Assembly: GCA_964436855.1 (NCBI GenBank)
Contig: CAYTED010000001.1
Location: 21 to 64,020 of the forward strand
Source of the DNA: an uncultured Bdellovibrionales bacterium
GTDB taxonomy: Bacteria; Patescibacteriota; Minisyncoccia; Moranbacterales; UBA1568
DNA: 64,000 nt
Reading direction: 5' to 3'
Shown here: positions 1,568-25,747 of the stretch, one piece after another
Numbering within the stretch: position 1 is the first letter of the stretch
How the letters are laid out: the number at the start of each line of letters is the position of its first letter
Notes under the pieces: generated by a model
Told to the model about the DNA's origin: nothing
The model's database searches: none
What the model saw: only the letters and a program-made list of their open reading frames with translations
Translations under genes and position numbers: made by a program

Positions 1568-1656
1568 ACAAAAATTTTTATATGATTACAGAAGCTATTA
1601 TAGTGCACTTTACTTTATTTTGTAAAGTATTATACTGTATTTAAGAAAGAAATGCT

Positions 1657-1968: not shown

Positions 1969-2004
1969 TCTTATATATAATCCCGGACAAAAGCTCCGGC
2001 AACA

Positions 2005-3180: not shown

Positions 3181-3392
3181 AATTTTTTGAGAAAAAAGAG
3201 GGGACTACTTCAAAGATCGGAGAGTGATCCAGACTTGCATTGTAACAAAAAAGTGGCTTTTTTAATAATCAAAAATTATGGATGACCGACATACTTCTGG
3301 AAAGAATTTTCTCCAAGAAAGGGGGAAGGAAAGCCTAAAGAACAAGGATTTCAAGGAATATAATCATCAACAAAGCATCTCCTTTCCCTCTC

Positions 3393-3432
3393 TATATTAT
3401 GTCGCATAATGTAACTTATGCGACATAATATA
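3393..3432. promoter_or_regulatory. Perfect 17-bp inverted repeat with a 6-bp spacer (tatattatgtcgcataa-tgtaac-ttatgcgacataatata). This is an operator-like palindrome.
   Basis: The two arms are exact reverse complements. It lies in the 566-bp intergenic region upstream of the nuclease gene. Confidence 0.4.
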
Positions 3433-3746
3433 TTATTGAAAAGAGCTTGTAAAAGACCTTTGAAGAAAAAGTGTTCTGTATTCCCCTATTTTGTTTTTCA
3501 AAAAAATACAACGCAAGAGAATACATTTTCCGAAGTTCTTTTTTCTGAAATGGTATCTCATATACCCCTCTCTTCCCTCATATCACTCCGACCTCTCTTC
3601 TCTTCTTTTTTGAAAACAAAAAATCCCATAATCCGCGGCCGCGAGTTATAGGATAGTTCCACGAAAACAGAAAGCAAAAATCCCCCATTTTTCGTTGAAA
3701 TTATCGGGGGAGTTCTCTCGAAAAAAAGCGTCCGTCTAGTGTCCGC

Positions 3747-4418
3747 CTATACGGTTGCATTGTCAGTGCACGATCTTCGAGAAAAAAACTGTGCGACAAA
3801 AACTCTCGCTCTCTCTCCTAAAGTCGGAGTAAATTCGTGGCGCATATGAGGAAGGGACACTTCGAGCATCTTTTTCAGGTACACGATCGCAACTTCAAGA
3901 TACAGCCCTGACATAGCATGGGTTTCGATAATATTCGTATTCTTTCCTTGCGAAAGATCTCCATGTCGAAATTTCTCGAGTATGCCTTCCAGCACATCGA
4001 TAATCTGATCGTAGCGCATCTCGAAAATATCCCAACCAAAAGAAAGTGGATGACCAAGTCGATCGATCATCACTACTCCAAATGGCAATCGAGACTCACC
4101 TTTTTCATCAAAAAGGGAAAGCCTTTCCGCAGCTTGAAATGATCGACAGAGATAGAAATGAGCTGACTCAGAATACCTCACAAGGCGCGGCCGATGCTTC
4201 TTGAAATCATCAACGATGTCCTTCTCAAGACAAGCGATCATGCCTAAAAGAATATTCAGAAACCCATCTCGGTTCATCAGGGCGATTCTCCGGCCAAGCT
4301 CTCGATTGGAGAAAAAGTACAACGCACCCGGAACCTTGACCGGATGGAAGCGCAGACGATCCTGTTGTAAAGAAACCATGCGACATTCTCCTTTTACAAA
4401 TTGAGGAAATGACGACAA
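3747..4418 (-). CDS. Hypothetical protein.
   Basis: A 223-aa ORF with ordinary coding composition. I recognise no family. The true start may be an internal Met (MVSLQQ…). Confidence 0.35.
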   Translation of the reverse strand: MSSFPQFVKGECRMVSLQQDRLRFHPVKVPGALYFFSNRELGRRIALMNRDGFLNILLGMIACLEKDIVDDFKKHRPRLVRYSESAHFYLCRSFQAAERLSLFDEKGESRLPFGVVMIDRLGHPLSFGWDIFEMRYDQIIDVLEGILEKFRHGDLSQGKNTNIIETHAMSGLYLEVAIVYLKKMLEVSLPHMRHEFTPTLGERARVFVAQFFSRRSCTDNATV

Positions 4419-4538
4419 ACAATAGACACAGTAAAGCCTATTTCCAAAAAAGAGTCAAAAAAAATTAATTATATGAGAAAATAATAATACAAAAAAATAA
4501 GGGATGGAAAAATCCCGAAAAAACTTTTCGAAGAGGAC

Positions 4539-5813
4539 TTACGGTAGATAATTCTTCGGATTGACGGTCGCGCCAATTGGAATATCTTTCAAACTTGGAA
4601 CAATCTTGGACGGAACCACCTCAAACGACTTTGCAGAAAAAACAGTGAAGTGGAGATGCGGACCGGTCGAATTTCCGGTATTGCCGGATTTTGCAATAAC
4701 ATCTCCTTGCTTTACCTTATCGCCTCGTGATTTTTTTACGACACTCAAATGACCATACATCGTAACAATACCATTACCATGATCAATCGCCATCCAGCGA
4801 CCGTACGCATACCGACCATTATTACCGGTTGCTACCACTTTCCCATCCTCCGCCGCCAAAACATCACTTCCAACCGGCATCCCAAAATCAAGTCCATTAT
4901 GAAATCCGCTCTTGTATCGACCGGAACTCACTGCAAAAGATGTTTTTCCATATCCCTGTGTCAGAACTACTTTCTTTACCGGATACTCAAGAAGGCCTTT
5001 TTGAAAAGCAGGCATATCCTTCAAATTCAGCTCGCCAACTTTTCCGGATTCAAGATCTTCGATTTCACTTTCGATTTCTTCGCGTTCTTCTTCGAGCTTA
5101 TCAATCAGTTTGTCATACTTCTGCTCTTCGGCTTTTGTTTTTTCGAGCAATTGCGCCTTATTTTCCTTTGAACTCTCCAGATACTCGTTCCTATCGGCAA
5201 GTTGCAGTCGGAGTGTATCCGCTTCAATTTTCTTTTCCTTTATCACGTCATACTCCGCCACGACGGACTTTTTCAGCGACTCAAGATCGTCGATCGCCAT
5301 CTCGATCCGCTCACTCGTCTGATTCGCCGCCTCCGCGGTCGAAAGAAAAAGACTCACCTCCCCCGCCGAAAGGAAAAAGGGGAGTTCTTCTTCGAGACTG
5401 CCAACGGAATAGGAACGAAACAAGTCAAGGAGAATGTTTTTCCGTTCGCGAATCACCGCCTCTTTTTCGGCAATACGCGTTTCGAGTACTGTCATTTCCG
5501 ATTCAAGAGATGTAAGCTTCGATTCGTTTTCAGCGATATCTTGTTCAAGTTGTTTCGCCTGCGCTTCGAGTGTTGTAATTTGTACGGAAAGATTCAGACG
5601 TTGTCGCTCTTTAATATCGGAAATTTTCTGGTACGCGTTGATCTTGTCAATAATCTCCTGTAGTTGATCCTGCTTTTTCTCGAGGTCATTTGCGGCAAAA
5701 ACACGCTCCGAAATCATTGAGAGACACGGAAAAGAAAAGGCTAGAACAAGAGCGATAACGCCAAAAAAATGCAGAAAATGTTTTTCGTTTTTCTGTTCTT
5801 TTTTCATAGACAT
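4539..5813 (-). CDS. M23 family metallopeptidase with an N-terminal membrane anchor and a long coiled coil (EnvC/LytM-like murein hydrolase activator).
   Basis: The C-terminus carries the M23 motifs HNGLDFGMPVGSDVLAAEDGKV…HGNG…GNTGNSTGPHLHF. The central region has heptad-rich LEAQAKQLEQDI… repeats. Confidence 0.8.
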   Translation of the reverse strand: MSMKKEQKNEKHFLHFFGVIALVLAFSFPCLSMISERVFAANDLEKKQDQLQEIIDKINAYQKISDIKERQRLNLSVQITTLEAQAKQLEQDIAENESKLTSLESEMTVLETRIAEKEAVIRERKNILLDLFRSYSVGSLEEELPFFLSAGEVSLFLSTAEAANQTSERIEMAIDDLESLKKSVVAEYDVIKEKKIEADTLRLQLADRNEYLESSKENKAQLLEKTKAEEQKYDKLIDKLEEEREEIESEIEDLESGKVGELNLKDMPAFQKGLLEYPVKKVVLTQGYGKTSFAVSSGRYKSGFHNGLDFGMPVGSDVLAAEDGKVVATGNNGRYAYGRWMAIDHGNGIVTMYGHLSVVKKSRGDKVKQGDVIAKSGNTGNSTGPHLHFTVFSAKSFEVVPSKIVPSLKDIPIGATVNPKNYLP

Positions 5814-5859
5814 ATTGTATCATATTTTTATTTATGGCTTATATTAGCAATTTTTATAG

Positions 5860-5888
5860 TTGACTGGGAAAGGATTTTGATATATAAT
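5860..5888 (+). promoter_or_regulatory. Sigma70-type promoter: TTGACT, 17-bp spacer, TATAAT.
   Basis: The -35 element at 5860-5865 and the -10 at 5883-5888 are a near-perfect consensus. The promoter lies about 35 nt upstream of the GTG start at 5923, which has a GAAGGGTGG ribosome-binding site. Confidence 0.55.
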
Positions 5889-5922
5889 AAAAAATTGTAC
5901 TTTTCAAGAAGGGTGGTAAACT

Positions 5923-6303
5923 GTGTCGAATTTCCATCAGATGATCGCGAATATCGCCGGCTTGACGCTTGTATTGATGTTTTTGTGTCTTTTCTTCGGT
6001 GATGCCGGTGAGAAGACAAGCGGAAAACGTCAACCAGCCATCAGTATGGCGCGATGGCTTTTCGGAAAAATGTTTCCGAGCAGATTTCCGCATCATTTCT
6101 CACCGACGAGTTATGATGTCGGTCGCTGGTCGGGATACGTCGCGCTGTTCTGTATCGTCAGCCTGACCGCCATTCGTTATTTCAAAATGAACGAGTGGTG
6201 GGCAATGGGTATCGCAACCCTCGCCGTCATTGGTGTCGCTGCGATTCGGCACGCGATCCGTGTCCTCGTCATATGGATACGGATTATCCGAAGAAAAAAA
6301 TAA
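5923..6303 (+). CDS. Small integral membrane protein, hypothetical.
   Basis: The 126-aa product has 3-4 hydrophobic helices and a basic C-terminus. It uses a GTG start and has a good ribosome-binding site. Confidence 0.4.
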   Translation: MSNFHQMIANIAGLTLVLMFLCLFFGDAGEKTSGKRQPAISMARWLFGKMFPSRFPHHFSPTSYDVGRWSGYVALFCIVSLTAIRYFKMNEWWAMGIATLAVIGVAAIRHAIRVLVIWIRIIRRKK

Positions 6304-6321
6304 GCGCCGAGAAGATATAGC

Positions 6322-6350
6322 AAAAGCCCCGGGAACCCCGAGGCTTTTTT
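6322..6350. terminator. Bidirectional intrinsic terminator: stem aaaagcc/ggctttt flanked by an A-run and a T-run.
   Basis: A hairpin followed by TTTTTT lies between the convergent 5923..6303 (+) and gltX (-) genes. Confidence 0.5.
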
Positions 6351-6366
6351 CTTTCTTTGAAATTTT

Positions 6367-7854
6367 TTACGAGAGCAGTGTGATCGCCTGATCAACCCGC
6401 TTCAGACTCTCGTCGCGGCCAAGCACCCACGCACAATCAAACGGGGATGGCGATTTGTCCGCGCCAGTAAGAGCAAATCGAAGCGGCCACAAAAAATCAC
6501 CACGCTTCTCCCCCGCCGCGTCCATCAATACTTTTTCCAAAACACTTTTCTCCGCCCATTCCTCATCCGAAAGTGCTGAAAGAATATCTCGCGCACGAGT
6601 AAGCGACACCTTCGTCATCTCCGCCGTATTTTCTTTCCAATTGAGTTTCTTCGGATCATACACCGGATCGGTCGCAAAGAAAAAAAGATTCTGTTCGCCG
6701 ACATCGGAGAGTTTTGCAAGTCGTTCTCGCTCGATCATAAGCACTCGCTTAAGATACTCTTCTGTCTGCATCTCCCCTGGCGCATTCCGAATGAGATCTT
6801 TTTCCAAAAACTTTCCGTCACGCATTTTTTCATACAGTTCGTCTACCGAAAGTTTCTTGATATACTCCGCATTCATCCAATCAAGTTTCTTCAAATCAAA
6901 AACTGCTCCCGCTTTATTTACTTGTGAGAGATCAAATCGCTCGATCAATTCTTCCAAAGAAAAAATTTCCCGTGTCTCCCCCTTTCCGGGATTCCACCCG
7001 AGAAGCGCGACAAAATTCAGAAGCGCTTCCTTGAGATACCCTTTTGCGAGATAGTCTTCCACTGCGACATCCCCCTGACGCTTGGAGAGCTTCGATCTGT
7101 CGGCATTGAGGAGAAGTGGCAAGTGAGCAAATTCCGGAATATCCCATCCAAACGATTCATACAAAAGAACATGCTTTGGCGTAGAAGAGAGCCATTCTTC
7201 TCCACGAATAATATGCGTTATTTGCATGAGATGATCATCAACAACGACTGCTAAGTGATAGGTTGGAAACCCATCCGATTTTAAAAGTACCTGATCATCG
7301 ACATCACGCGTATGAAATTTCACCGTCCCGCGCACGAGATCGGTGAAACAAATTTCTCGATCATCAGGAACCGCCATTCGAACCACAAAAGACTCTCCTT
7401 GCTCAAGACGCGCCTTCACTTCATCTTCTGAAAGAGAACGGCAGTGTCGATCATATTTCGGCGCTCGCTTTACTTTCATTTGTTCTGCTCGAACAGACTC
7501 CAATCGTTCAGGCGTACAAAAACAATGATACGCTTTTTTCTTTGCAAGCAATTCATCGACGTATTTCTGATATATACAGAGTCGTTGCGACTGCGTATAC
7601 GGACCATATTCGCCCTTTTCCACTACGGCGCCATTTTTAAACAATACGCCCTCATCCGGCTGAAGACCAAGCATCGCAAGCATCCGCGCAAGATTTTCTA
7701 CCGCACCATCCACAAAACGTTTCTGGTCGGTATCCTCGATACGCAGCACAAATGCTCCATGAAATTTTTTTGCAAGCAAAAAATCCGTGAGTGCCATGCG
7801 CAAGCTTCCAACATGCATAAACCCCGTCGGCGACGGCGCAAATCGGACACGCAT
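6367..7854 (-). CDS. gltX: Glutamate--tRNA ligase.
   Basis: The N-terminus MRVRFAPSPTGFMHVGSLRMAL matches the HIGH region. KLSKRQGD is the KMSKS motif. The length and the anticodon-binding C-terminus are typical. Confidence 0.9.
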   Translation of the reverse strand: MRVRFAPSPTGFMHVGSLRMALTDFLLAKKFHGAFVLRIEDTDQKRFVDGAVENLARMLAMLGLQPDEGVLFKNGAVVEKGEYGPYTQSQRLCIYQKYVDELLAKKKAYHCFCTPERLESVRAEQMKVKRAPKYDRHCRSLSEDEVKARLEQGESFVVRMAVPDDREICFTDLVRGTVKFHTRDVDDQVLLKSDGFPTYHLAVVVDDHLMQITHIIRGEEWLSSTPKHVLLYESFGWDIPEFAHLPLLLNADRSKLSKRQGDVAVEDYLAKGYLKEALLNFVALLGWNPGKGETREIFSLEELIERFDLSQVNKAGAVFDLKKLDWMNAEYIKKLSVDELYEKMRDGKFLEKDLIRNAPGEMQTEEYLKRVLMIERERLAKLSDVGEQNLFFFATDPVYDPKKLNWKENTAEMTKVSLTRARDILSALSDEEWAEKSVLEKVLMDAAGEKRGDFLWPLRFALTGADKSPSPFDCAWVLGRDESLKRVDQAITLLS

Positions 7855-7897
7855 TGTCTGTTTCCGCTCTTCCATATCCAAATCTTTTTCCGAAAAA

Positions 7898-8641
7898 TTA
7901 TGGCTTCAGTATGGCATTTTTTAGAACTTTGAACAAGAAAATAAGTGTGGCATCAAAAATTCTCCCCATTCTTTTTGGTTGCAGCGTAAGTCGCCACAGC
8001 CATTCGAGGCCGATCATTCGCAACCATTTCGGAGCGCGTTTTTGTTTCCCGGTCAGATAATCAAATGCGCCACCAATGCCCATCGAAAGTCGCACCTCTC
8101 CCGGATTCGCCCGCAATGATTCGAGAAAATATTCCTGCTCCGGGGCACCGAAATTACAAAAAATGATATTAGATTTATGATTTACGATTTTGGAATAAGA
8201 ATCTTTATCCGAAGAATCCATAAATCTTAAATCATCAATCATAAATCCCTGACCCACTATGGCAAGATTTGGATACTTTTTTAAAACAATCGATTCCACC
8301 TCCTCATACGAACTCAATCCATCCTTTCGCACCGCAAGATATACCGAAAGATGTCGCTCGTTCGCGATACGCAATATCTCTTTCATTAAATCCGCCCCGG
8401 GAAACCGCTCGATTTTTTTCCCCTGCAACCACCCCGCAAGAACGATACCGAATCCGTCCGCGATCCGAAGATCCGCCGCCCGAAGATTCTCCCGAAACGC
8501 ATCGTCTTTCTCCGCACGAAGCAAAAACTCCGGATTCACCGTCGCAATACGATGAAACTTTTTTTCATCAAGAAACTTCCCCACATATTCGATGAGGGAG
8601 TTTCGGGACAATGTATCAATGGGAATACCAAACAACTCCAT
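7898..8641 (-). CDS. WecB/TagA/CpsF-family glycosyltransferase (N-acetylmannosaminyltransferase-like).
   Basis: The 247-aa product contains …NPEFLL…, …FCNFGAPEQEYF… and …GIGGAFDYLTG…, the characteristic Glyco_tran_WecB motifs. Confidence 0.8.
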   Translation of the reverse strand: MELFGIPIDTLSRNSLIEYVGKFLDEKKFHRIATVNPEFLLRAEKDDAFRENLRAADLRIADGFGIVLAGWLQGKKIERFPGADLMKEILRIANERHLSVYLAVRKDGLSSYEEVESIVLKKYPNLAIVGQGFMIDDLRFMDSSDKDSYSKIVNHKSNIIFCNFGAPEQEYFLESLRANPGEVRLSMGIGGAFDYLTGKQKRAPKWLRMIGLEWLWRLTLQPKRMGRIFDATLIFLFKVLKNAILKP

Positions 8642-8780: not shown

Positions 8781-9371
8781 TTACTTCAACTCAAAATCCC
8801 CAAGCGACACATACTTTCGCTTTCCGCCCTCCGCGACACTTTCAAACAAGGTAATGTTCCCGACCGACTCCACAAGACGAACCGACTCCAAAAGATCCGG
8901 CCGTTCGGGAAGTTTCGTCCATCGTCCCCGCAACACCCGCCCAAGCGTGACATGCGGACGGAATTCCTTATATTCCGGATCAAAAGAAGCGATCGATCGT
9001 TCGAGTGCGTTCCGTAATTTCGCAAGTTCTCCGCTCGGCTCGCCCGAAAGCCACACCATCCGCGCGCCCTCCCCCGCCTCCGGCACCATTTCGATCCGAT
9101 CAAACGAAAGTTCGAACGATTCGATATCCGCCACCGCTTCACGCAATTCTTCGCACAAATGATCCAAATCCTCATCCTTCACAAGACCAAGGAACGCAAG
9201 CGTTACATGCATCATATCCGCCGACGTAAAACGAATCGGGAGATGTTTCCATTTCTCCGTTTTCGCAAGCGCTCGCTTCGCAAATGACGCCGAGAGTGGT
9301 ATTCCTACAAAAAGTCTCCGTGCATTCATATACCGAAGAATAGCTTGTTCAAAGGAAAAAATCAATTTCAA
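8781..9371 (-). CDS. thpR: RNA 2',3'-cyclic phosphodiesterase (2H phosphoesterase, ThpR/LigT family).
   Basis: It carries two H-x-T-x motifs (HVTLAF and HVTLGR) about 80 aa apart. The length is about 190 aa. Confidence 0.75.
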   Translation of the reverse strand: MKLIFSFEQAILRYMNARRLFVGIPLSASFAKRALAKTEKWKHLPIRFTSADMMHVTLAFLGLVKDEDLDHLCEELREAVADIESFELSFDRIEMVPEAGEGARMVWLSGEPSGELAKLRNALERSIASFDPEYKEFRPHVTLGRVLRGRWTKLPERPDLLESVRLVESVGNITLFESVAEGGKRKYVSLGDFELK

Positions 9372-11311: not shown

Positions 11312-12541
11312 TTAACGCCGCTGTCCGCCACTAAAACCCCGGAAATTAAAGAGGTTCGAGGATGACTGTGTCGGCGTTTGAGGCCGGACGATCCGCGTCA
11401 CAATCGTCTCACCCTCAGTAAGACCGCTTACAATCTCCGTATTCATCTCATTGGAAATTCCTGTTTCAACCGTTCGTCGCTCATACCCGGCAAGAAACGC
11501 GGAATCCTCTCCGTTTTGCCCATTGTTGTTAGTAGCTCGCTGCCCCTGGCGCCGACTACCATCCCCTGTAACATCTTCTGTCATTCCCACTCCGCCCCGA
11601 CTGCCATTCTCATTCGTAGGAACAAGCACATACGAATCGCCGTTATTCGATTGTAAAGCCGATAACGGCACCCGTACGACCGAGGATTTTTTTGCCGTCA
11701 CAATAGTAACGTTCACACTCATTCCCGGCTTCAGTACCATATCCGATGATTTCTCGAATTCAATCTCAGCATTATATGTCACAACCCCCTGCGTCACTAT
11801 TCCGATCGTATCGATCTTACTCACGGAACCGGAAAGTGCTTTTCCGCCGAATGCCTCGACGGAAATCACCGCTCCATTTCCAATCGCCACCGATGCAGCA
11901 TCCACTTCGTTCAATGGAATCTTCACATACTGTTCCGGTGTAATGACCGACGCGATCACATCATCCCGTGATACCGAATCCCCGACCTCAACGGAAAGCC
12001 CGGTTACAATGCCATCAAACGGCGCGCGGATCGTATAATCCCGAAGCGTCTCCTGCGCATCAGCGAGCGCGTTCCTTGCCTGATTGACCGCCACTTCCTG
12101 CAACTGTCGGGTCAGACGGTCGTCGATATCCCGACTCTCGGCGGCGCGCTTGGTTTGTCGCATTTTTACTTCCGCACTCTGGAGCGAAAGGAGCGCGTTT
12201 CGAACCGCCTTCTCCGCATCATCGGAATCGAGCGAAACAATAGGATCGCCTTTCCTGACCACTTGATCGTTTTTCACATATACCCAAACCACATCAATCG
12301 CGTCTCCCGCCGCCACCGACTGAAGGCTCACCTGCGAACGCGCATAGATTTGTCCTGAACCCGAAACAGAAGCGACAATATCTCCGCGTTGCACCTTGCC
12401 GGTTTCATACGTCGTTTTCTGTATTACTTCACTTCCGCTCTCCCGAGTAAAATACCAGTAGCCAAAACCGGAGAGGAGAACAAGCGAAAACAAGACTTTC
12501 TTTCGTTTCCATATCGACCCAAAAATTTCCTGAATATTCAT
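11312..12541 (-). CDS. Efflux transporter periplasmic adaptor (HlyD/MacA-like membrane fusion protein).
   Basis: It has an N-terminal TM anchor, a coiled-coil hairpin, and beta-barrel and MP domains. It is the first gene of the adaptor-ATPase-permease operon. Confidence 0.7.
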   Translation of the reverse strand: MNIQEIFGSIWKRKKVLFSLVLLSGFGYWYFTRESGSEVIQKTTYETGKVQRGDIVASVSGSGQIYARSQVSLQSVAAGDAIDVVWVYVKNDQVVRKGDPIVSLDSDDAEKAVRNALLSLQSAEVKMRQTKRAAESRDIDDRLTRQLQEVAVNQARNALADAQETLRDYTIRAPFDGIVTGLSVEVGDSVSRDDVIASVITPEQYVKIPLNEVDAASVAIGNGAVISVEAFGGKALSGSVSKIDTIGIVTQGVVTYNAEIEFEKSSDMVLKPGMSVNVTIVTAKKSSVVRVPLSALQSNNGDSYVLVPTNENGSRGGVGMTEDVTGDGSRRQGQRATNNNGQNGEDSAFLAGYERRTVETGISNEMNTEIVSGLTEGETIVTRIVRPQTPTQSSSNLFNFRGFSGGQRR

Positions 12542-12690
12542 AAAGATCTCATTTTATGAATTACGTTTCATGGTTACAAAACCAACTTAATTTTCATCCG
12601 ATATTTTTTTATATTGTAGCATTTTTCCCATTTCTCATCCAATGAAAAAACCTTGAAAAAAAGCCAAAAAAAAGTATACTTGAGGCACCT

Positions 12691-14649
12691 ATGCCGAAGA
12701 AAAGAAAAAAATTATATCTCGTCTCCGTCGCGCCGGTCGTCTCACTCCCGCTCTCTCGGGATCCATTTTTCACATACTCATCGGACATCGATATTCCAAA
12801 AGGATCGCTCGTCCGTATTCCACTCGCTTCCCGCACTGTCGATGGCATCGTACTCGAATCAAAGCCACTCGTTCACAAGCCCGCTTTTCGCGTCCGACCG
12901 ATTACCGCAATTATCGAACCGTCATTTGTCGGCGACAAAACGATTGATCTTGTCCGATATATTTCCGAAATCTATTTTTCTCCGTTCGGTATTTCCATAA
13001 AGCATGCTCTGCCAAAACGCGTGAAAGAACGAAAAAAACAGATCGAAGAAAAACCCCTCACACCTCTTCCCGCACGTACTCCTTCGGAAAAAAAGCTGCT
13101 GACCACCATCAAGAAACATCCCTCCGCCTACCTAAACCCCGCAACACCGACCGAAAAAAACACCATCTTCCTCACGCTCGCACAACACACCCTCGAAAAA
13201 AAAGAACAGATCCTCTTCCTCGTTCCGGACATTATTCTCGTTTCGGAACTCGCGCTTTTTTTTGAGCGATTTTTTCCGATCCAAAGCATCGCAACTATCG
13301 AAAGCAAGCTCGGGAATGGCGCTTATTACTCGAACTGGGAACGCATCCGCTCCGGTGAAGCGAGTATCGTCATCGGCACCAGACAAGCGCTCTTCGCGCC
13401 GTTCCGGAAACTTCGAAGTATTATCTTTGATTTCGACAGTGCCGAAGGGTACAAGCAGTGGGATATGACCCCGCGATACGACGGGAAAACGGGAGCGCAA
13501 AAACTGGCGGAACTCTGGAAGGCGCATCTGCTTCTTGTTTCGCCGATACAAACGATCGAAACCCTCTTAGAAGAAGAACGCGGCAGTATACAAAAAGTTG
13601 ACGGAGGCGCATCAAAAAGAAAAACAAATCTCATTCTCTCCGATCTCAAGCTCGAACGATACAAAAAAAACTTTTCACCCTTTTCCACTCTCGTGGTCGA
13701 ATGGCTCGGCGAGACACTGCGCCGCGGCAAGCAAGCGCTCCTCATCATCAACCGACAAGGAACAAGCATTTTTTCGATCTGTGAACGCTGTCGCGAAACT
13801 TTCCGATGTCCGAAATGCGATCGGGCGCTCGTCGGATCGAAGGATGAAACCTATCGATGTCTGCATTGCTCCTACCGAACCGACGACTTCCCAAAGTGCG
13901 GGAAATGCGGCGGACTCGCCTTTCGAAATGTCGGTTTTGGAACGGAAAAAATAGAACGTGAAGTGAAAAAACTCTTTCCTCGCGCGCACACCGCTCGCAT
14001 CGACGGACCGTCTCTTCGCGCGGAAAAAAACTTCCGTTCTTTCACAAAAAAAATTACTTCCGGTGCGATTGACATCCTTATCGGTACCGAGGCGGCCCTG
14101 TATGGTCCGCGATTGCCGAAGCCTGCTCTCATTGCTATACTTGACGCAGACAATACCCTCAAATTCCCCGATTATCGAGCCGAAGAGCGTCTTCTTCGAA
14201 GCGTCTGCACCGCAAAATGGCTCGCATCGGAAGAAAGCGGGACGGTTATTTTGCAAACATTTCATTCCGAAGAACGCCATTTCCGTATCCTCTCCGAAGG
14301 AAAAGAGGAGGAGTGGGAACAAGCCATCCTAAAGGAACGAGAGGCGTTCCACTATCCTCCCGATGGTGTTTTGGTCAAACTCGAGTATCGGGAAACAAAT
14401 CTCGAACTTCTTGAAAAGGAAACGGGAAAAGCAATGAACATACTCCGTCCATCCGAAGAAAAAGAAGTGATACGATATATCGTAAGCGACCCGATCACTC
14501 CCTTTGTCTCAAAAGTCCGCGGAAAAAACATTCAAACCATTATTCTCCGTATTCCCGGAAACACACTTCCGGAATCACTCATTGAAAAAATTATTCTCCT
14601 CTCGAAACGCGGTTGGATCGTCGACCGAAATCCTCTCTCACTGACATAA
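12691..14649 (+). CDS. priA: Primosomal protein N' (PriA) homolog with degenerate helicase motifs.
   Basis: It is collinear with PriA. The Cys-rich zinc region (CERCRETFRCPKCD…CLHCS…CGKCGG), the C-terminal domain and the GTR(S/Q)ALF motif are retained. Walker A is PATPTEKN instead of GVTGSGKT. Walker B is DFDS instead of DEEH. Motif III is VSPIQ instead of GSATP. Confidence 0.8.
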   Translation: MPKKRKKLYLVSVAPVVSLPLSRDPFFTYSSDIDIPKGSLVRIPLASRTVDGIVLESKPLVHKPAFRVRPITAIIEPSFVGDKTIDLVRYISEIYFSPFGISIKHALPKRVKERKKQIEEKPLTPLPARTPSEKKLLTTIKKHPSAYLNPATPTEKNTIFLTLAQHTLEKKEQILFLVPDIILVSELALFFERFFPIQSIATIESKLGNGAYYSNWERIRSGEASIVIGTRQALFAPFRKLRSIIFDFDSAEGYKQWDMTPRYDGKTGAQKLAELWKAHLLLVSPIQTIETLLEEERGSIQKVDGGASKRKTNLILSDLKLERYKKNFSPFSTLVVEWLGETLRRGKQALLIINRQGTSIFSICERCRETFRCPKCDRALVGSKDETYRCLHCSYRTDDFPKCGKCGGLAFRNVGFGTEKIEREVKKLFPRAHTARIDGPSLRAEKNFRSFTKKITSGAIDILIGTEAALYGPRLPKPALIAILDADNTLKFPDYRAEERLLRSVCTAKWLASEESGTVILQTFHSEERHFRILSEGKEEEWEQAILKEREAFHYPPDGVLVKLEYRETNLELLEKETGKAMNILRPSEEKEVIRYIVSDPITPFVSKVRGKNIQTIILRIPGNTLPESLIEKIILLSKRGWIVDRNPLSLT

Positions 14650-14654
14650 ATGCT

Positions 14655-15125
14655 ATGCACACCATTCTCACCGGACCGGAAAATGAAATCCTGAAGACAC
14701 CTTCTCAAAACGTCTCCGATCCCCTCTCCCCCGACATCCAAAAACTCATCCCCACAATGTTCGAGACAATGCACCGTGCGGACGGCATCGGTCTTGCCGC
14801 GCCGCAAATCGGTATTTCTCTCCGTCTCGCCGTTATCGAAATCGAGAACGAAAAACTCGTTCTGATCAATCCGAATATCGTCGCGAAATCCGCGGAAACA
14901 ATCGTTTTCGAAGAGGGATGTCTCTCGCTTCCGGGAGAATTTCTTCCCATTCTCCGATACGAAAAAGTAACGGTCGAATACACCGACGAAAAGGGAGTGG
15001 CGCAAAAACTCAAAGCATCCGGACTTCTTGCGATTGCCATTCAGCACGAACTCGACCATCTCGATGGCACTCTTATCGTCGATCGCTATCGCAACCAATC
15101 CGTAAAAGAACCGTATGCCCTTTAG
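14655..15125 (+). CDS. def: Peptide deformylase.
   Basis: The three PDF motifs GIGLAAPQIG, EGCLS and HELDHL are present. I chose the start at 14655 to avoid overlap with priA. Confidence 0.9.
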   Translation: MHTILTGPENEILKTPSQNVSDPLSPDIQKLIPTMFETMHRADGIGLAAPQIGISLRLAVIEIENEKLVLINPNIVAKSAETIVFEEGCLSLPGEFLPILRYEKVTVEYTDEKGVAQKLKASGLLAIAIQHELDHLDGTLIVDRYRNQSVKEPYAL

Positions 15126-16107
15126 CTTTACGCGAGAAAACATTTTCGACGCGCCGAAAATCCGGACGGTATTTATGGGAACACCGGAATTTTCAGAAGT
15201 GTTTCTGCAGGCGGTCATTCAGGCAAAATACAATCTCGTTGCCGTATACACACGACCAGACAAACCACAAGGTCGAGAACAAGAACTCATCGCTTCTCCG
15301 GTAAAAATTCTTGCGCTCGGCAATCACATCCCTGTAGAGCAACCGATCAAGTTCGACGAAGCGGCGATTGAAAAACTGAAATCCTACAAACCCGATCTCA
15401 TCGTCGTCGCCGCATATGGACGCATCCTTCCGCAAGCTGTACTCGACCTCCCGGGATTCGGTTGCATCAATGTCCACCCATCACTCCTCCCGAAGTATCG
15501 CGGACCAGCCCCCATCCAAAACACCCTTTTAAACGGGGAAACAACAACCGGTATCACCATTATGCTTATGGATGCCGGCATGGATACCGGGCATATCCTT
15601 TCGCAGAAAACGATTGGGATAGATCCGAAAGAAGCCGCTCCAAAACTCGAACAGAAACTTGCTCTCGAGGGTATCGAACTTCTCCTTGAAACGCTTCCGC
15701 GCTGGATCAAACGCGAACTCGAACCGACACCGCAGAAAAATGAAGACGCTACGCTCTGCGAACTTATCGAACGTGAAGACGGTCGTATTTTTTGGAACGA
15801 AAATGCGGAAACAATTTATAATAAATATCGGGCATTCGATCCTTGGCCGGGAATTTTTTCCTACTGGAAAAAATCCGGCAACTCACAGCCGCTTCGGATT
15901 AAATTTCCAAAAATAAATGTCATTAAATCCGACCCATCAATAAAACATTCCCTCGGCGAAGTTTTTGAGATCGGGGAGAAAATTGGAATCCAGACAAGCG
16001 CTGGTATTATTTGCCCGGACATGCTCCAACTTGAAGGAAAAGAACCGATCTCGCCACCGGAATTTCTCCGCGGCTACCCCAATTTTATCGGCTCTATCCT
16101 CGAATAA
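15115..16107 (+). CDS. fmt: Methionyl-tRNA formyltransferase.
   Basis: IRTVFMGTPEFS… and NVHPSLLPKYRGPAPIQ match the formyltransferase core. It overlaps def by 11 nt, the usual def-fmt operon arrangement. Confidence 0.9.
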   Translation: MPFSFTRENIFDAPKIRTVFMGTPEFSEVFLQAVIQAKYNLVAVYTRPDKPQGREQELIASPVKILALGNHIPVEQPIKFDEAAIEKLKSYKPDLIVVAAYGRILPQAVLDLPGFGCINVHPSLLPKYRGPAPIQNTLLNGETTTGITIMLMDAGMDTGHILSQKTIGIDPKEAAPKLEQKLALEGIELLLETLPRWIKRELEPTPQKNEDATLCELIEREDGRIFWNENAETIYNKYRAFDPWPGIFSYWKKSGNSQPLRIKFPKINVIKSDPSIKHSLGEVFEIGEKIGIQTSAGIICPDMLQLEGKEPISPPEFLRGYPNFIGSILE

Positions 16108-16130: not shown

Positions 16131-16943
16131 ATGCAAAACAAAAAAGATTTCATCATACTCCTCTCGATCGGCGGACTTCTCCTTTGTATCGTTATCGGAT
16201 TTTCCATAAAATACCTCTTCCTTAACACGAAAAAAAGCGCTTCTGTCGTCTCGATTGAAAATCGAAAAGAAAAAGGGTATCCGCTTTTCTCTCCCGATGC
16301 GCTTCGCCTCAAAATAAGTCGATCCGAACCGATCGAAATTATCGATCTCCGTCCGAAGAGCCTCTTCGATGAAGAGCATCTGCTTGATGCAAAACAATTC
16401 GATATCGACACGCTTCCGGGCTACGAACCGCAGGAACACGATGCGCAGGTTATCGTTGTTTCCCTTGCCGACGACGAAGAGCTCCGTATCGCCGCACACA
16501 AGATCCTAGAGAAAAAATCGTTCCCATACGCGTTTCTTGAAGGCGGAATTCCGGCATGGAAAGCGATCGGCGGCAGTACCGTTTCCTTCGGCGATATCGA
16601 TTCTTTTATCGATCGATCCAAAGTGCTCCCCATTACATCCGATGAACTCAAAAAACTCCTCGAAGATATTGATTTTCAAAACCGCTACGTCATTGTTGAT
16701 GTTCGACAAAAAAACGATTACCGCACCGGGCATATCGTAAGGGCCATCAATATTCCCCTCGCGGAGCTCGAAGCAAGGCGGCATGAAATCCCCGCCGGAA
16801 GGCAGGTAATTACCTACGGAGCAACCGACCTTGAAGGGTTCCGCGCGGCCGTTCGACTGTTTGACTTCAACTTTTTCTCCTCGCAAGCGCTCTCCGGCGG
16901 AATAAACGAATGGAAAACGAAAAAATTTCCTATCGAATCATAA
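16131..16943 (+). CDS. Membrane-anchored protein with tandem rhodanese-like domains.
   Basis: It has an N-terminal TM helix and two about 100-aa domains with rhodanese-like patterning (…VIVDVRQKNDYRTGHI…). Confidence 0.55.
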   Translation: MQNKKDFIILLSIGGLLLCIVIGFSIKYLFLNTKKSASVVSIENRKEKGYPLFSPDALRLKISRSEPIEIIDLRPKSLFDEEHLLDAKQFDIDTLPGYEPQEHDAQVIVVSLADDEELRIAAHKILEKKSFPYAFLEGGIPAWKAIGGSTVSFGDIDSFIDRSKVLPITSDELKKLLEDIDFQNRYVIVDVRQKNDYRTGHIVRAINIPLAELEARRHEIPAGRQVITYGATDLEGFRAAVRLFDFNFFSSQALSGGINEWKTKKFPIES

Positions 16944-16962: not shown

Positions 16963-17436
16963 TTACCCGCGAAATTCTTTATCGCCGTCAAATCTCGCCT
17001 GCCAGGCAAGAAAATTCGTGAAAAGATAAATCAAAAGAGAAACCAGAAGCGCCGCTTTCGCGTGTTCGACGCCGAATGACGGGTGATGCACGATGCTCAT
17101 CGTTCCAAGAAATGCCAAGAGCGGAAGTATGATGTCGAGACGAGCGTTTTCCTTTGTTTCCCGAATTCCAACAAAACGCTCAAAACGCTCCCAGAGAATC
17201 GCCAAAACAAACGTAATCGAAAACCACAGGACAAAAGGGTGCTCATAAGCTTCGGCGAAAAGCGCCGTTACACTCCCGAAAAGAAAGTGCGGTATCGACC
17301 AAAAATCAAGATACTTCCCGAATTTTTTTGAAACAAGAAAGTGCGTTTTTGTTTTTTTGTTTTGCATACGTAGAGAGAAAGAAAAGAGCCTCGGAAAGAC
17401 TCTTTTCATTATCTCCTGCTTACTGAATGACTGCAA
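16963..17436 (-). CDS. Hypothetical membrane protein.
   Basis: The ORF encodes several hydrophobic helices. I recognise no family, and the true start is uncertain. Confidence 0.3.
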   Translation of the reverse strand: MQSFSKQEIMKRVFPRLFSFSLRMQNKKTKTHFLVSKKFGKYLDFWSIPHFLFGSVTALFAEAYEHPFVLWFSITFVLAILWERFERFVGIRETKENARLDIILPLLAFLGTMSIVHHPSFGVEHAKAALLVSLLIYLFTNFLAWQARFDGDKEFRG

Positions 17437-19453: not shown

Positions 19454-20266
19454 TTATCTTTCTCGCCTCGGCAAAGGCTTTCCGAAATACTTCGCGAAAT
19501 ATTTGATCGCGCTCCCGATATGAATCCATGTGAGCCGATTAAAGAAAAGTCCAAGAAGCCCTCCCCCCGCACTTCCCTTGCCGTGGTAATGATACACCAT
19601 CGCCTGCGGGAGATGCATCACTTTCCATCCCTTCTCCCAAAACCGCCGACACCAGTCCACATCTTCCATATACATAAAAAAGCGCGTATCCATTTTCCCC
19701 ACTTCTTCATACGCCTTCCGTCTCACAAACATCGCCGATCCCATAATCCAATCCACCGCGCAAGGTTCTTTCCGATCATAATCCTTCATCTGAAACCAAT
19801 CGAGATGCTTTTTCCCGAACGGAAACCACCCAAGCGGCGTTCGACGATAAAGAATCGTCATTGGTTGATAAAAATGAAATGTTGAAAACTGTTCGCTTCC
19901 ATTAAAATTAATCTGTTTCCCGCCCGCGATCCCGACATCGGAATGTTTCTCGAAATATGCAAGAAACGCCGGGATGGTTTCTTTCGTGAGGACAATATCG
20001 TGATTGATGAGGAAAAAATACTCCTCCCCGCGTGCCTCCTCGAGCGTTTTATTCACAAGTCGCACACATCCAACGTTTTTCTCAAACGGAAAAAATCGCA
20101 CCGATGGAAAATCCTGCATCACAAGTCTCGTCGATTCTTCGGTGGCACTGTCCGCCACGAGCACTTCGTACTCGATTCCCGAAACGTTTTTTTCGATCGA
20201 TTCAAGACAAAGCCGAAGCAACTCCGGATTTTTGTAACTATTAATGGCGATAGAAAGCTTCGGCAC
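19454..20266 (-). CDS. Glycosyltransferase family 2.
   Basis: The product shows the GT-A fold pattern: LSIAINSYKNPE…, a DxD region (NHDIVL) and the C-terminal …MYMEDVDWCRRF…. Confidence 0.8.
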   Translation of the reverse strand: MPKLSIAINSYKNPELLRLCLESIEKNVSGIEYEVLVADSATEESTRLVMQDFPSVRFFPFEKNVGCVRLVNKTLEEARGEEYFFLINHDIVLTKETIPAFLAYFEKHSDVGIAGGKQINFNGSEQFSTFHFYQPMTILYRRTPLGWFPFGKKHLDWFQMKDYDRKEPCAVDWIMGSAMFVRRKAYEEVGKMDTRFFMYMEDVDWCRRFWEKGWKVMHLPQAMVYHYHGKGSAGGGLLGLFFNRLTWIHIGSAIKYFAKYFGKPLPRRER

Positions 20267-20436
20267 AAGATATTCATTAATACAAGGACAATCCGAACTG
20301 TTTTCCGGCGCGAGTTTGATCTCGAAAGCATGGTCTTCTTCGACACACTTATCGAAGAAGTTTCGAGATCAACCTCAGTGCGGTCCCGCTAGAGACCGTG
20401 CGGCGACGAACAACAGTTCGGATTGAAACGAAAACC

Positions 20437-21660
20437 CTACGGCAATTTCGCAAACATCTCCCGAATCTTGTCGTAATTGTCGCCAGCCGGGAGAAGGATA
20501 TATCCCGTTTCTTTCGTTGTCTCCGGATGATAGAGAAGTCCCTCTTCCGTCGTATCAAGCACTCGTGAGGTCGGCGCGACATCACCCATTTTCTGATACA
20601 AATCGAAAAGACGCTTCATCTCCCACCCCTCAAGATTCGTAAGCACGTTATTTCCAAGTCCATTGAGAAGTCCGTTGATTTTCTCGAAATCCGAAAGCGT
20701 TCCGATCGAGAGCGCCTTCTTCTTGACGGCTTCAATAACTTGCTGCTGCCGTTTCGCGCGATCGAAATCACTCGATCCATATCGCGCTCGCGCAAAACAA
20801 AGCGCTTGCTCACCATTCAATTGGGAATCTCCGGCAGGAAGCGATACTTTTCCGTTACACTCCAAATCTTCCGGATTCACTTTCGCATAGCAAAGCGGGT
20901 ATCGCTTTGGATTCAGATAGTACGTTCCGTTTTTCCGGCGAATTCGTTTTTCTTCGTAATTTCCCGAGGGAATGGTATACCGAACCCCATCGCAACGCTG
21001 CTCCAAGCCTCGAAACTGGAGATTTTCCGAAAATGGCTGATCAAGAGTAACGGTAATCCCTCCAACCGCATCGACAATTTCTTTAAATCCCTCAAAATTA
21101 ATCGCGACCGAGTACGGGATATTTTGCCCCGTAATCTCACTGACGATTGTTCGCATATCTTCCATACCCCCTCCGCCATGCGATCGATTCTCTCCCTCCG
21201 CATACACGGCATTAATTTTTGCTTGCCAATCCTTATTCGGAATCTTCACATAAAAATCCCGCGGAATGGAAACGAGCGACGCCTTGGCGGTATCCCCTTC
21301 GATCGCGTCATTCTTCGGATGAATCGAGAGGACCATAATTGTATCCGCAAGAAGTCCTCCTCCCGTTACGTGTTCCCCGCGCATCCCGAGAAGAAGAATA
21401 TTGATCCGCCCCTCGTCTTCACCGGAAAGTTTCTTTTCCACACCCGGAAGCGTCTTTACGATATTTTTCAAAAACCCGTCTTTGCCAACGGAAATTTTTC
21501 CGATCGTCGCGCCGGCTTTCAAAAAAACAATTCCGCCGACAATCAAAATAACCACGAATATTCCAACCGCGATATGCCACCATCGGAAACGACGTTTTTT
21601 TTCAAAAGTAAACGAAGATGATCCGCCCGACGATGCATCTTTTTTTCCAAATAAAGACAT
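20437..21660 (-). CDS. LytR-CpsA-Psr (LCP) family protein.
   Basis: It has an N-terminal TM helix and the LCP core INILLLGMRGEH…ADTIMVLSIHPK…SLVSIPRDFYVKIP. I chose the internal Met start at 21660 to avoid a 100-nt overlap. Confidence 0.8.
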   Translation of the reverse strand: MSLFGKKDASSGGSSSFTFEKKRRFRWWHIAVGIFVVILIVGGIVFLKAGATIGKISVGKDGFLKNIVKTLPGVEKKLSGEDEGRINILLLGMRGEHVTGGGLLADTIMVLSIHPKNDAIEGDTAKASLVSIPRDFYVKIPNKDWQAKINAVYAEGENRSHGGGGMEDMRTIVSEITGQNIPYSVAINFEGFKEIVDAVGGITVTLDQPFSENLQFRGLEQRCDGVRYTIPSGNYEEKRIRRKNGTYYLNPKRYPLCYAKVNPEDLECNGKVSLPAGDSQLNGEQALCFARARYGSSDFDRAKRQQQVIEAVKKKALSIGTLSDFEKINGLLNGLGNNVLTNLEGWEMKRLFDLYQKMGDVAPTSRVLDTTEEGLLYHPETTKETGYILLPAGDNYDKIREMFAKLP

Positions 21661-21677
21661 GATGTATTCTTCACTGT

Positions 21678-22814
21678 TTAGTTCTCGACAAACAAAGAAA
21701 GAAGCGTTTTCGCGCTTTCCTTCCACGAGAAAGAAGAGAGCGTCCGAGATCCGTCCGCAAGCGCTCTTTCCCGCCATTGGTCGTCAATGGAAGCATTGTA
21801 CAATATTTCCGCCGCACCGGCAATGCCGTGTGGATTGAAAAAAACCGCTGCAGAAGAAGCGATTTCCCGAAACGGCGGGATGTCCGAACAAGCAACCGGC
21901 ACCCCTTGCGATAGCGCCTCAAGAATCGGAATGCCAAACCCTTCGTAGAGCGACGGAAATACGAAGAGGCGTGCGCCAGCATAGAGCGCCGGAAGATCAG
22001 CACTCTCGATAAATCCCGGAAAAATCACCCGCCCGCCGATACTGGTTTCTTTGATTGCCCGATCGATTCCCATATCGAAATGATGCGCTTTCCGATTCCC
22101 GACAAGCACCAGCGAATACCCTGCGCTCGGAAGTTTCGATTGCGCGAATGCTCGAATGAGAAACGGGATATTTTTTCGCGGTTGGAGCGTCCCGACCGAA
22201 AGAAGATATTTCTCCGGCAGATGGTATTTCTTTTTCACACGAATAACATCTTCCGGCATCGCTTTCTGCAAAAATTCATCGCCGATTGCATTGTAGAGAA
22301 CACCCACTTTCTCCGGACTGACACCGTAATATTTGACAATCTCCGCTTGAGTAAATTTCGATGTTGCAAGCACTCGATATGACCGACAAATCGACCGCGG
22401 AATAAGAAGCGCAAGAAACAGTCGGTCCTTCCACCCGATTAACTGCGGAAACGCGCGAAACGACACATCGTGAATATGCGTAAATATCTTCGTCCGTTTT
22501 GGTGTAAAAAACGGAATAATGTACTGCGTATGAAAAACATCAATCTGATTGTTCCAAAAATATCTCGGAAGCGTCCAAAAATTCCACGTGTAACGATTCC
22601 TTGTCGGCAAAGAAATCAATTGAATATTCTCCTTTCCGGCAAGCTGGAGCCGACGAGAAATCTGCGAGAGACGCTCCACATTCGTCTCATCGGTAAGAAG
22701 AAAATAATGATTCTCTCGATCAAGCATAACGAGCTCCCGCGTGAGATGAAAGAAAACCATCTCATCCCCCGTGCGTTGTTTTCCGAGCAATCGAATGTCA
22801 ATGGCGATGTTCAT
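21678..22814 (-). CDS. Glycosyltransferase family 4 (GT-B).
   Basis: The C-terminus carries the GT4 signature FPSLYEGFGIPILEALSQGVPV. Confidence 0.8.
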   Translation of the reverse strand: MNIAIDIRLLGKQRTGDEMVFFHLTRELVMLDRENHYFLLTDETNVERLSQISRRLQLAGKENIQLISLPTRNRYTWNFWTLPRYFWNNQIDVFHTQYIIPFFTPKRTKIFTHIHDVSFRAFPQLIGWKDRLFLALLIPRSICRSYRVLATSKFTQAEIVKYYGVSPEKVGVLYNAIGDEFLQKAMPEDVIRVKKKYHLPEKYLLSVGTLQPRKNIPFLIRAFAQSKLPSAGYSLVLVGNRKAHHFDMGIDRAIKETSIGGRVIFPGFIESADLPALYAGARLFVFPSLYEGFGIPILEALSQGVPVACSDIPPFREIASSAAVFFNPHGIAGAAEILYNASIDDQWRERALADGSRTLSSFSWKESAKTLLSLFVEN

Positions 22815-22838
22815 AATGAGAGAAACAATAACGAAAAA

Positions 22839-24479: not shown

Positions 24480-24487
24480 ATCCGATA

Positions 24488-25669: not shown

Positions 25670-25747
25670 AGTAAGAACATTGTATCAAGAAACGGTAAAT
25701 GAGAAAAAGAAATCTAAACAAAGCTTCGCTTGCAGTCGCATTATATT

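Follow-up and report, generated by a model that had tools for sequence, protein, structure and literature searches.

Can a PriA protein still serve replication restart once the motor of the helicase is gone? This question is raised by a gene located at positions 12691-14649 (+ strand, as are all the features of this gene given below) of a 64-kb stretch of DNA, hereafter the window (positions 21 to 64,020 of contig CAYTED010000001.1, assembly GCA_964436855.1). The window was deposited under the name of an uncultured Bdellovibrionales bacterium and is assigned by GTDB to the Moranbacterales, within the Patescibacteriota of the Candidate Phyla Radiation (CPR). A sequence-only reading had described the gene product as a PriA homolog in which all core helicase motifs are degenerate while the DNA-binding and zinc regions are intact. 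We found that it is a true PriA ortholog, which keeps the whole PriA architecture except for the winged-helix domain. We consider it likely that the gene is the organism's orthologous priA, evolved into a pseudohelicase that would act as an ATP-independent platform for fork recognition and helicase recruitment.

The open reading frame (ORF) starts with ATG and encodes 652 amino acids (aa), and is full length as had been proposed. The NCBIfam priA equivalog model TIGR00595 matches residues 152-635 with 270.4 bits, above its cut-off of 230.35. When compared by phmmer with all PDB sequences, the protein retrieved PriA chains only, from Klebsiella (4nl4, E 1.8e-50) and E. coli (8fak and 6dcr), and its residues 150-628 align unbroken to residues 239-717 of Klebsiella PriA. 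In Pfam, PriA_3primeBD (PF17764; E 3.5e-10, 40 bits for a cut-off of 22.7) is the sole PriA domain above threshold; DEAD is sub-threshold (22.4 vs 26), and Helicase_C and PriA_C were not detected in the protein. A frameshift or an assembly artefact hiding the true helicase region, which the sequence-only reading had named as a possible refutation, was ruled out since the alignment to PriA is continuous and since a second, independently built assembly encodes the identical protein.

The phmmer alignment to Klebsiella PriA (4nl4) bears out the four motif substitutions that had been read by eye. Walker A (motif I), which is GITGSGKT in Klebsiella and GPAGSGKT in an intact sister protein, is replaced by PATPTEKN (aa 150-157, positions 13138-13161): the three glycines have disappeared along with the Ser/Thr; the Lys position is kept (K156) and is preceded by one acidic residue in this protein (E155) and by two in close relatives. 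Walker B (motif II) is DFDS instead of DEEH (aa 247-250, positions 13429-13440), with the catalytic Glu replaced by Phe. Motif III is VSPIQ instead of GSATP (aa 283-287, positions 13537-13551), and motif VI is CTAKWLA instead of QVSGRAGR (aa 506-512, positions 14206-14226), with the loss of both the Gln and the arginine finger. The glycine of motif V (G472) is kept here while it is lost in many degenerate relatives. A regular-expression search of the entire protein returned no [AG]xxxxGK[ST], DExH/D or QxxGR, and there is no Walker A in the other + strand frames of positions 12501-14800, the one match on the opposite strand being a chance one. A mis-registration of the motifs, the other refutation that had been envisaged, is thus ruled out. 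We also considered a lone GKT (residues 265-267) as a displaced Walker A; it sits in the region of the aromatic-rich loop and is found in this sequence alone, and we regard it as a coincidence.

An AlphaFold2 (AF2) model built from a 77-sequence alignment is of high confidence (pLDDT 91.7, pTM 0.91). Its best Foldseek match is the fork-bound E. coli PriA (8fak_H; E 3e-45, TM scores of 0.80/0.81), the second is the E. coli delta-WH PriA 6dcr, and the top nine PDB matches are all PriA chains. Both RecA-like lobes are therefore retained, which answers the structural check that the sequence-only reading had suggested. Lobe 1 (aa 131-330, positions 13081-13680) is catalytically degenerate. Lobe 2 (aa 331-530, positions 13681-14280) includes motifs IV and V and an LDAD motif, and carries an inserted Cys-rich region (CRR; aa 361-411, positions 13771-13923); a C-terminal domain follows (CTD; aa 531-652, positions 14281-14646). 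As a control we modelled in the same way the intact sister P0086, whose motifs are GPAGSGKT, DEEQD, GSATP and QVSGRSNR (pLDDT 90.0). In the P0086 model the P-loop consists of a strand, a six-residue loop and a helix that starts from the Lys; in the window protein the loop is reduced to three residues (P150-T152) and the helix starts three residues early. Likewise, the loop that carries the arginine finger of motif VI has 2 residues in the window protein vs 12 in P0086. On alignments and models together, the ATPase site is obliterated: nothing remains of the glycines of the P-loop, of motif III, of the Walker B Glu or of the Gln and arginine finger of motif VI.

We also asked if the degenerate protein might be locked in the fork-bound conformation, as its model is closer to 8fak, in which the CRR is rotated (TM 0.80), than to the apo delta-WH structure 6dcr (TM 0.70). 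This reading was dropped because P0086, with its intact motifs, prefers the fork-bound state too (0.83 for 8fak vs 0.69 for 6dcr).

The winged-helix domain of E. coli PriA binds the parental duplex, and this domain is not universal among PriAs. It is missing here: residues 115-150 of the protein (~35 residues) face residues 123-239 of Klebsiella PriA (~116 residues), and a 22-residue linker (aa 109-130, positions 13015-13080), with no secondary structure in the AF2 model, stands where ~70-115 winged-helix residues sit in E. coli and Klebsiella PriA. The same holds for the Moranbacteria PriA family as a whole, intact and degenerate members alike (120 homologs of about 640-700 aa), in which a linker of ~22 residues takes the place of the domain, and the P0086 model also lacks it. 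Thus, the earlier statement that the DNA-binding regions are intact stands for the 3′-end DNA-binding domain (3′BD) and for motifs Ia, Ib and IV and most of motif V, but it had overlooked the absence of the winged helix.

Elements with known DNA-contact roles in E. coli PriA are retained. The 3′BD (aa 9-108, positions 12715-13014; PF17764) is modelled with a pLDDT >90, and its invariant Y29, together with K/R69, S/T28 and G/A46, lines the likely 3′-end pocket. This pocket was mapped to D17/Y18/G37/K61 of E. coli PriA by reading the Klebsiella alignment along with the literature (PMC5778457), and the E. coli residue numbers used in this work rest partly on our own reading of alignments. In lobe 1, the DNA-contact motif Ia is FLVPDI (aa 176-181, positions 13216-13233), with Q173, L175 and P179 conserved in intact and degenerate relatives. 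Motif Ib is kept as IVIGTRQALF (aa 226-235, positions 13366-13395) with an invariant R231, so that the GTRxALF motif that had been reported as conserved is indeed there, as GTRQALF. The aromatic-rich loop, GYKQWDMTPRY (aa 253-263, positions 13447-13479), has invariant K255, Q256, W257, P261 and Y263 in intact and degenerate forms alike. Within lobe 2, motif IV (NRQG, aa 354-357), motif V (ILIGTEAALYG, aa 462-472) and LDAD (aa 484-487) are all kept. In E. coli PriA, the aromatic-rich loop acts as a wedge at the fork junction (PMC5778457, PMC10175261), and the arginines of motif IV line a pore around the lagging-strand single-stranded DNA (ssDNA) that is closed by rotation of the CRR (PMC10175261, PMC13594977).

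The zinc-binding region, too, is as conserved as had been claimed. The CRR contains eight cysteines arranged in four CxxC pairs that form two predicted zinc sites, and all eight (C364, C367, C373, C376, C390, C393, C403 and C406) align to cysteines of Klebsiella PriA. Seven of them are invariant in 80/80 relatives, and the fourth, C376, is a Cys in 64/80. In the other 16, which are all degenerate, the equivalent of this fourth ligand (positions 13816-13818 in the window) is a Ser within the sequence CPxSGH (L006, L008-L010, L013, L023, L024, L029, L030, L039, L045, L051, L055, L058, L061 and L066). In these proteins the His located two residues further on may take over as ligand, which would make a Cys3His site.

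We compared 32 intact and 43 degenerate sequences column by column, with a threshold of at least 90% conservation in the intact set. The columns that pass this threshold and are lost in the degenerate set are 150-161 (motif I with the beginning of its helix), D247, G283, A285, G472, Q507, G510 and R511, and two positions of the CTD, aa 614 and 616 (positions 14530-14538). At these last two positions, intact relatives and Klebsiella have an Arg and a Gln, and the joint loss of these residues with the ATPase motifs hints at a functional link with the motor rather than with fork binding. A hundred columns are conserved in both sets. They include the core of the 3′BD (Y29, K/R69), Q173, L175, P179 and E180 of motif Ia, R231 and F235-F238 of motif Ib, K255, Q256, W257, R262 and Y263 of the aromatic-rich loop, R355 and G357 of motif IV, GxGTE (415-422), I462, L463, G465 and T466, D485/D487, D494/F495/E499, Q522/T523 and seven of the zinc cysteines. 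As read from these alignments, the pattern is one in which the ATP site is lost and the DNA-contact elements are retained.

The pairwise identity of the domains is somewhat lower in the degenerate than in the intact set: on average 0.53 vs 0.55 for the 3′BD, 0.46 vs 0.61 for lobe 1, 0.59 vs 0.61 for the CRR and 0.32 vs 0.44 for the CTD. The earlier claim of a conserved CTD therefore holds for its fold and not for its sequence, since it is the most divergent domain, escapes the Pfam PriA_C model and has lost the Arg and the Gln at aa 614 and 616. We also examined if the replaced motifs are hyper-conserved or hyper-variable in the subclade to which the window protein belongs. This was rejected: their pairwise identity (0.53-0.74 vs 0.64 overall) is that of ordinary conservation, and the former Walker B region alone is more conserved (0.74-0.83 vs 0.64-0.68 overall).

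Is the degenerate state a peculiarity of this genome? We tabulated the motifs of the best 120 of 1155 database homologs, which come from metagenome bins of Candidatus Moranbacteria/Patescibacteria, and scanned 185,579 species-representative genomes with patterns that match both intact and degenerate forms, keeping the best 80 loci. The closest relative of the window protein is 49% identical. The window subclade (P0001-P0013, 46-49% identity) has PxSxEEK[NI] for motif I, LDFDGHD for motif II, SPTPT for motif III and RSLAIALxR for motif VI. A large group at 37-41% identity has TSxxxDPK, TEEQDE, SGTPS and QDLSRAVRQ, respectively, and a third degenerate group has MSA--AES for motif I, LEEAEAVGYKQ for motif II and SGEVPE for motif III. 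At 33-36% identity, an intact group retains GPxxSGKT, DEEQD, GSATP and QxxGRxxR. Motif loss is thus clade-wide, which the sequence-only reading had proposed to check, and as it is common to dozens of species the degenerate state goes beyond chance.

In most of the 80 loci, priA is followed at equal spacing by def, fmt and a rhodanese gene, be the motifs intact or degenerate. Because the intact sisters share this gene string, the degenerate priA genes are orthologs in the ancestral locus and not extra copies. L042 and L052 depart from this arrangement and encode degenerate proteins (VEPNSDKE for motif I, TDNHTD for motif II) outside the def-fmt context. In this lineage (L042, positions 3556-7962, and L052) the gene lies in a region of 28-31% GC, with a Mutator-family transposase adjacent and no def-fmt downstream.

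Where the locus titles give a taxon below "bacterium", it is Moranbacteria/Moraniibacteriota, the Parcubacteria group, the Patescibacteria group or Minisyncoccota; four titles give none. Many third-party "binchicken" metagenome-assembled genomes from ENA (L002-L005, L007, L011, L012 and others) are titled "uncultured Bdellovibrionales bacterium" despite typical Moranbacteria priA-def-fmt-rhodanese loci. The title is probably a taxonomic mislabel.

Three relatives have kept part of the motor. L026 (priA at 1611-3626) keeps GPPAAGKT and DDEH, with a degenerate motif III (STP for SAT) and a degenerate GR in motif VI. L049 (5941-7992) keeps GPSGSGKT, DEEQ and the GR of motif VI and has lost motif III and the Gln of motif VI. 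L079 (5998-8028) has lost Walker A and keeps DEEQ (DEEQD). These three proteins may be evolutionary intermediates. We placed them on neighbour-joining (NJ) trees calculated from 406 columns with the four motif regions masked (200 bootstraps), using as outgroup the Klebsiella PriA sequence transcribed from the phmmer alignment. The window protein, L001 and L002 group together in 200/200 replicates and fall within one large degenerate clade, the monophyly of which is moderately supported (108/200). L026 and L049 stand beside this clade (133/200 for the clade together with both), and L042/L052 and L079 are found among intact sequences. L042 and L052 form a pair in 200/200 replicates; this pair joins the intact clade in 175/200 and the large degenerate clade in 0/200, and we therefore rejected a single loss event.

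On these NJ trees, the motifs were lost independently in at least two gene lineages, and probably in three. The intermediates tentatively suggest an order in which motifs III and VI are lost first and motifs I and II afterwards. From this we put forward, with slightly more doubt than confidence, that motor loss in this CPR class was repeated and stepwise, comprising a large Moranbacteria radiation with three flavours of replaced motifs plus one or more other lineages (L042/L052, probably also L079), and with living intermediates. If so, and if all these proteins are the sole functional PriA of their hosts, helicase-independent restart would be the rule across an entire branch of ultra-small bacteria, and the series would amount to a natural dissection of the PriA functions that need ATP and of the partner that replaces PriB, DnaT or DnaD.

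A protein with so many lost motifs could be a decaying pseudogene or the product of a sequencing, assembly or frameshift artefact, and the fact that Pfam helicase domains fall below threshold is what one would then expect. We hold this as hardly credible. The ORF is full length, the PriA alignment reaches residues 14-628 without a break, the same protein was obtained in two assemblies, the same state recurs in dozens of species and the coding strand holds no Walker A in an alternative frame. Moreover, dN/dS is about 0.1. It was calculated by the Nei-Gojobori method on close pairs among the retrieved loci (70-98% aa identity), after exclusion of one near-identical pair with negligible dS, and amounts to 0.06-0.19 in degenerate and 0.05-0.20 in intact pairs; the range is also alike in both groups for the RecA-like lobes, with 0.08-0.24 for lobe 1 in the relatives. 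Since purifying selection acts on the degenerate core as strongly as on the intact one, decay is ruled out. It could also be argued that the protein has remained an NTPase or helicase by means of a non-canonical site, built on K156 and D247/D249 or on a second, weak nucleotide site such as the possible one mentioned in a review of E. coli PriA (PMC5778457). Indeed, K156 aligns with the Walker A Lys, and "EEK" and "DFDG" are conserved in the window subclade, where the former Walker B region has the elevated identity given above. Nonetheless, we regard this as very improbable: none of the P-loop glycines is left, the Lys is preceded by one or, in close relatives, two acidic residues, the P-loop is collapsed into a helix in the AF2 model, Phe has replaced the Walker B Glu, the Gln and arginine finger of motif VI are gone with their loop deleted in the model, and the other degenerate subclades have no Lys at this position. 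In E. coli, the K230R substitution alone abolishes the ATPase activity (PMC5778457).

The other two explanations accept an inactive motor and question the role of the protein. It might be an accessory paralog with a side role, the main work being done by an intact priA or by another fork-remodelling helicase encoded elsewhere. Relocated copies do exist, as in L042/L052, where the gene is away from def-fmt and adjacent to a transposase, and the genome search covered the window only. This seems unlikely to us, as the window gene occupies the ancestral priA-def-fmt-rhodanese position of the intact orthologs of sister species. Furthermore, the 21 genes of the window that were scanned, being the largest ones or neighbours, include no second priA, recG or other superfamily 2 (SF2) helicase, no second PriA-like ORF lies within any of the 80 loci, and each of these 80 best loci comes from an assembly of its own, with no assembly giving two copies even though the patterns match both forms. 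Alternatively, the PriA fold may have been neofunctionalised for a role outside restart, for instance as a DNA-structure-binding regulator or a nucleoid factor. The loss of the motor and of the winged helix and the divergent CTD could go with such a change of role, and we found no literature on partner proteins in this phylum. We judge it an equally unlikely outcome, because the features of fork recognition (the Tyr of the 3′BD pocket, the aromatic-rich loop, the pore Arg of motif IV and the CRR) are kept as in the intact orthologs and because helicase-dead precedents keep their restart function (PMC4504706, PMC5778457).

An ATP-independent restart platform is thus the reading that we favour for the window PriA, and four points weigh against it. 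K156 at the position of the Walker A Lys, together with D247 and D249, makes residual nucleotide binding conceivable. The Arg of the pocket for the SSB tail (R697 in E. coli, in our own numbering) is not conserved, which blurs the route of recruitment. An intact second priA, or a helicase that compensates (RecG, Rep/PcrA), is conceivable elsewhere in the genome, as the search covered the 64-kb window and the loci of 80 relatives. Finally, the dN/dS values come from other degenerate subclades, as the window protein shares 49% identity with its nearest relative, a distance at which synonymous sites are saturated.

How would such a protein work? We propose that it recognises abandoned forks and D-loops via the 3′BD, lobe 1 and the aromatic-rich loop, and that it would clamp the single-stranded lagging-strand template between the CRR, lobe 2 and the CTD, like E. 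coli PriA. This ATP-independent platform would then recruit the replicative helicase DnaB, either directly or via a lineage-specific adaptor other than PriB. The CRR pore of PriA needs ~9 nt of lagging-strand ssDNA, and where the arm is duplex it has to be unwound beforehand (PMC13594977). As the window PriA would not unwind a duplex lagging arm, its action may be limited to forks that carry about 9 nt or more of lagging-strand ssDNA; alternatively to such a pre-existing gap, another enzyme might clear the lagging-strand arm.

The earlier suggestion of a PriB/DnaB-loader scaffold is not supported in its PriB part. The docking surface of PriB on the E. coli CRR consists of D438, S481, T482 and H483, and PriB itself is poorly conserved across bacteria (PMC10175261). 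These four residues correspond to R366, G408, L409 and A410 in the window protein and are variable across the clade, and a partnership with PriB is therefore unlikely. None of the genes of the 64-kb window scanned by Pfam is priB- or dnaT-like, and we found no literature on PriA, DciA, restart partners or helicase loaders in CPR/Patescibacteria.

That a PriA can do without its motor is not new. The PriA of D. radiodurans shows neither ATPase nor helicase activity; it binds ssDNA and forks about as tightly as E. coli PriA and interacts with DnaB, and since the work of Lopper et al. (2015) the pseudohelicase PriA is an established concept (PMC4504706). The main review of the field considers Deinococcus as the sole exception to the conserved helicase activity of PriA (PMC5778457). 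The E. coli K230R mutant (priA300) is devoid of ATPase and helicase activities as well, and yet it assembles the primosome and supports restart via PriA-PriB (PMC5778457, PMC13594977). The replication-restart configuration proposed in the sequence-only reading is thus unusual, as stated, but precedented, Deinococcus-Thermus PriA having been shown experimentally to be a pseudohelicase.

The window PriA resembles that of D. radiodurans in being a full-length ortholog with non-consensus Walker A and Walker B motifs and a preserved DNA-binding architecture. The lack of ATPase and helicase activities was shown there and is predicted here, and the window protein would likewise be a probable ATP-independent restart initiator in contact with DnaB. 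By analogy with this protein and with E. coli K230R, the most likely state is one in which ATP hydrolysis is lost while fork binding and helicase loading are kept. The two proteins also differ. In Deinococcus, the change consists of a Lys to Arg substitution in GKT and a poor Walker B (PMC4504706), whereas degeneration goes much further in the window PriA, which lacks the whole P-loop, motif III, the catalytic Glu and the loop of the motif VI arginine finger. Unlike Deinococcus, intact orthologs are found in the same CPR class and at the same locus, and the winged-helix domain is absent from this lineage. While D. radiodurans PriA was assayed biochemically, the window PriA is known from its sequence and model. 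Since intact orthologs at 33-36% identity occupy the same syntenic locus, the nesting of the degenerate proteins inside Moranbacteria, on a tree built without a Deinococcus sequence, indicates an origin independent of that of Deinococcus-Thermus.

The E. coli K230R (priA300) and K230A/D variants, which are dead as ATPase and helicase, show that the scaffold can be separated from the motor (PMC5778457, PMC13594977), as we propose for the window PriA. However, they are laboratory point mutants of an organism that possesses PriB, DnaT and PriC, and their restart is PriB-dependent; as the PriB-docking residues are not conserved, the downstream partner of the window PriA must differ from that of K230R. 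Canonical PriA (TIGR00595; structures 4nl4, 6dgd and 8fak) and the window protein share their domain order, their fold (TM score of 0.80) and the two-zinc region with its eight Cys; the aromatic-rich loop, motifs Ia, Ib, IV and V and the priA-def-fmt gene order are also common to both. The window protein differs by motifs I, II, III and VI, which are predicted to be non-functional, by the lack of a winged helix and by its length (652 vs about 732 aa).

Actinobacterial PriAs have been flagged by curators as without detectable helicase motifs; if this is correct, they would form another natural group of helicase-less PriAs. The actinobacterial models of NCBIfam PRK14873 are named "primosome assembly protein" and not "helicase", and we found no literature on the Walker motifs of these proteins. 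The window PriA matches the PRK14873 models weakly (E 1e-30 to 1e-16, far under the cut-offs) and its nearest intact relatives are CPR PriAs, which places it outside this group.

Altogether, the concept of a pseudohelicase PriA was known; what is new is its independent origin in Patescibacteria, where it is more extreme and recurrent within one class, with intermediates. Independently of Deinococcus, the motor would have been discarded here in a second group of phylum rank, an internally diverse one where intact, intermediate and degenerate orthologs are found at one locus, under equal purifying selection. It supports the idea that the essential, conserved job of PriA is fork recognition and helicase recruitment and not unwinding, and it bears on a question listed as open in the review literature, namely if PriA acts alone in PriA-only bacteria. 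Its significance is limited by the fact that the concept is already experimental in D. radiodurans and E. coli priA300. The comparative series is ready for picking proteins to express and test, and degenerate PriAs should not carry the name "helicase" in annotations.

The priA gene of the window is preceded by a promoter-like site, TTGAAA-16 nt-TATACT (positions 12653-12680, +), with 10/12 matches to the consensus as a pattern match only, and by a GAGG Shine-Dalgarno-like sequence read at positions 12682-12685 (+), 5 nt ahead of the ATG. The gene order of the priA-def-fmt operon that had been proposed is confirmed. The def gene (peptide deformylase; 14655-15125, +; PF01327, E 1.7e-46, also a gene call in the independent assembly) starts 5 nt past the priA stop, and fmt (methionyl-tRNA formyltransferase; 15115-16107, +; PF00551 and PF02911) overlaps def by 11 nt. 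The fourth gene of the conserved string encodes a rhodanese-domain protein (16131-16943, +; PF00581).

Elsewhere in the window, GC skew is negative in every 2-kb bin from 1 to 64000 (-0.08 to -0.35), with genes on both strands; judging from this skew the window lies wholly on one replichore, with an unusually strong strand asymmetry. Four ORFs have no Pfam match at E <= 0.001: 60014-62416 (+, 800 aa), 3747-4418 (-, 223 aa), 16963-17436 (-, 157 aa) and 36965-37447 (-, 160 aa). A stand-alone PD-(D/E)XK/Cas4-like nuclease of 391 aa (2005-3180, -; PF12705, E 5e-36) has no adjacent helicase or CRISPR genes. RNA repair is represented in this reduced genome by an RtcB RNA ligase (35302-36855, +) and a LigT-like 2′-5′ RNA ligase/phosphoesterase (8781-9371, -). 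Much of the window, at positions 19454-34000 and 39981-63586, is taken up by a large cell-envelope and glycosylation region. Its products include LytR-CpsA-Psr, an O-antigen-ligase-like protein, WecG/TagA and a secreted lipase/LCAT-like protein of 1016 aa (52452-55502), as well as a pair of neighbouring PMT_2/ArnT-like membrane glycosyltransferases (45606-49810).

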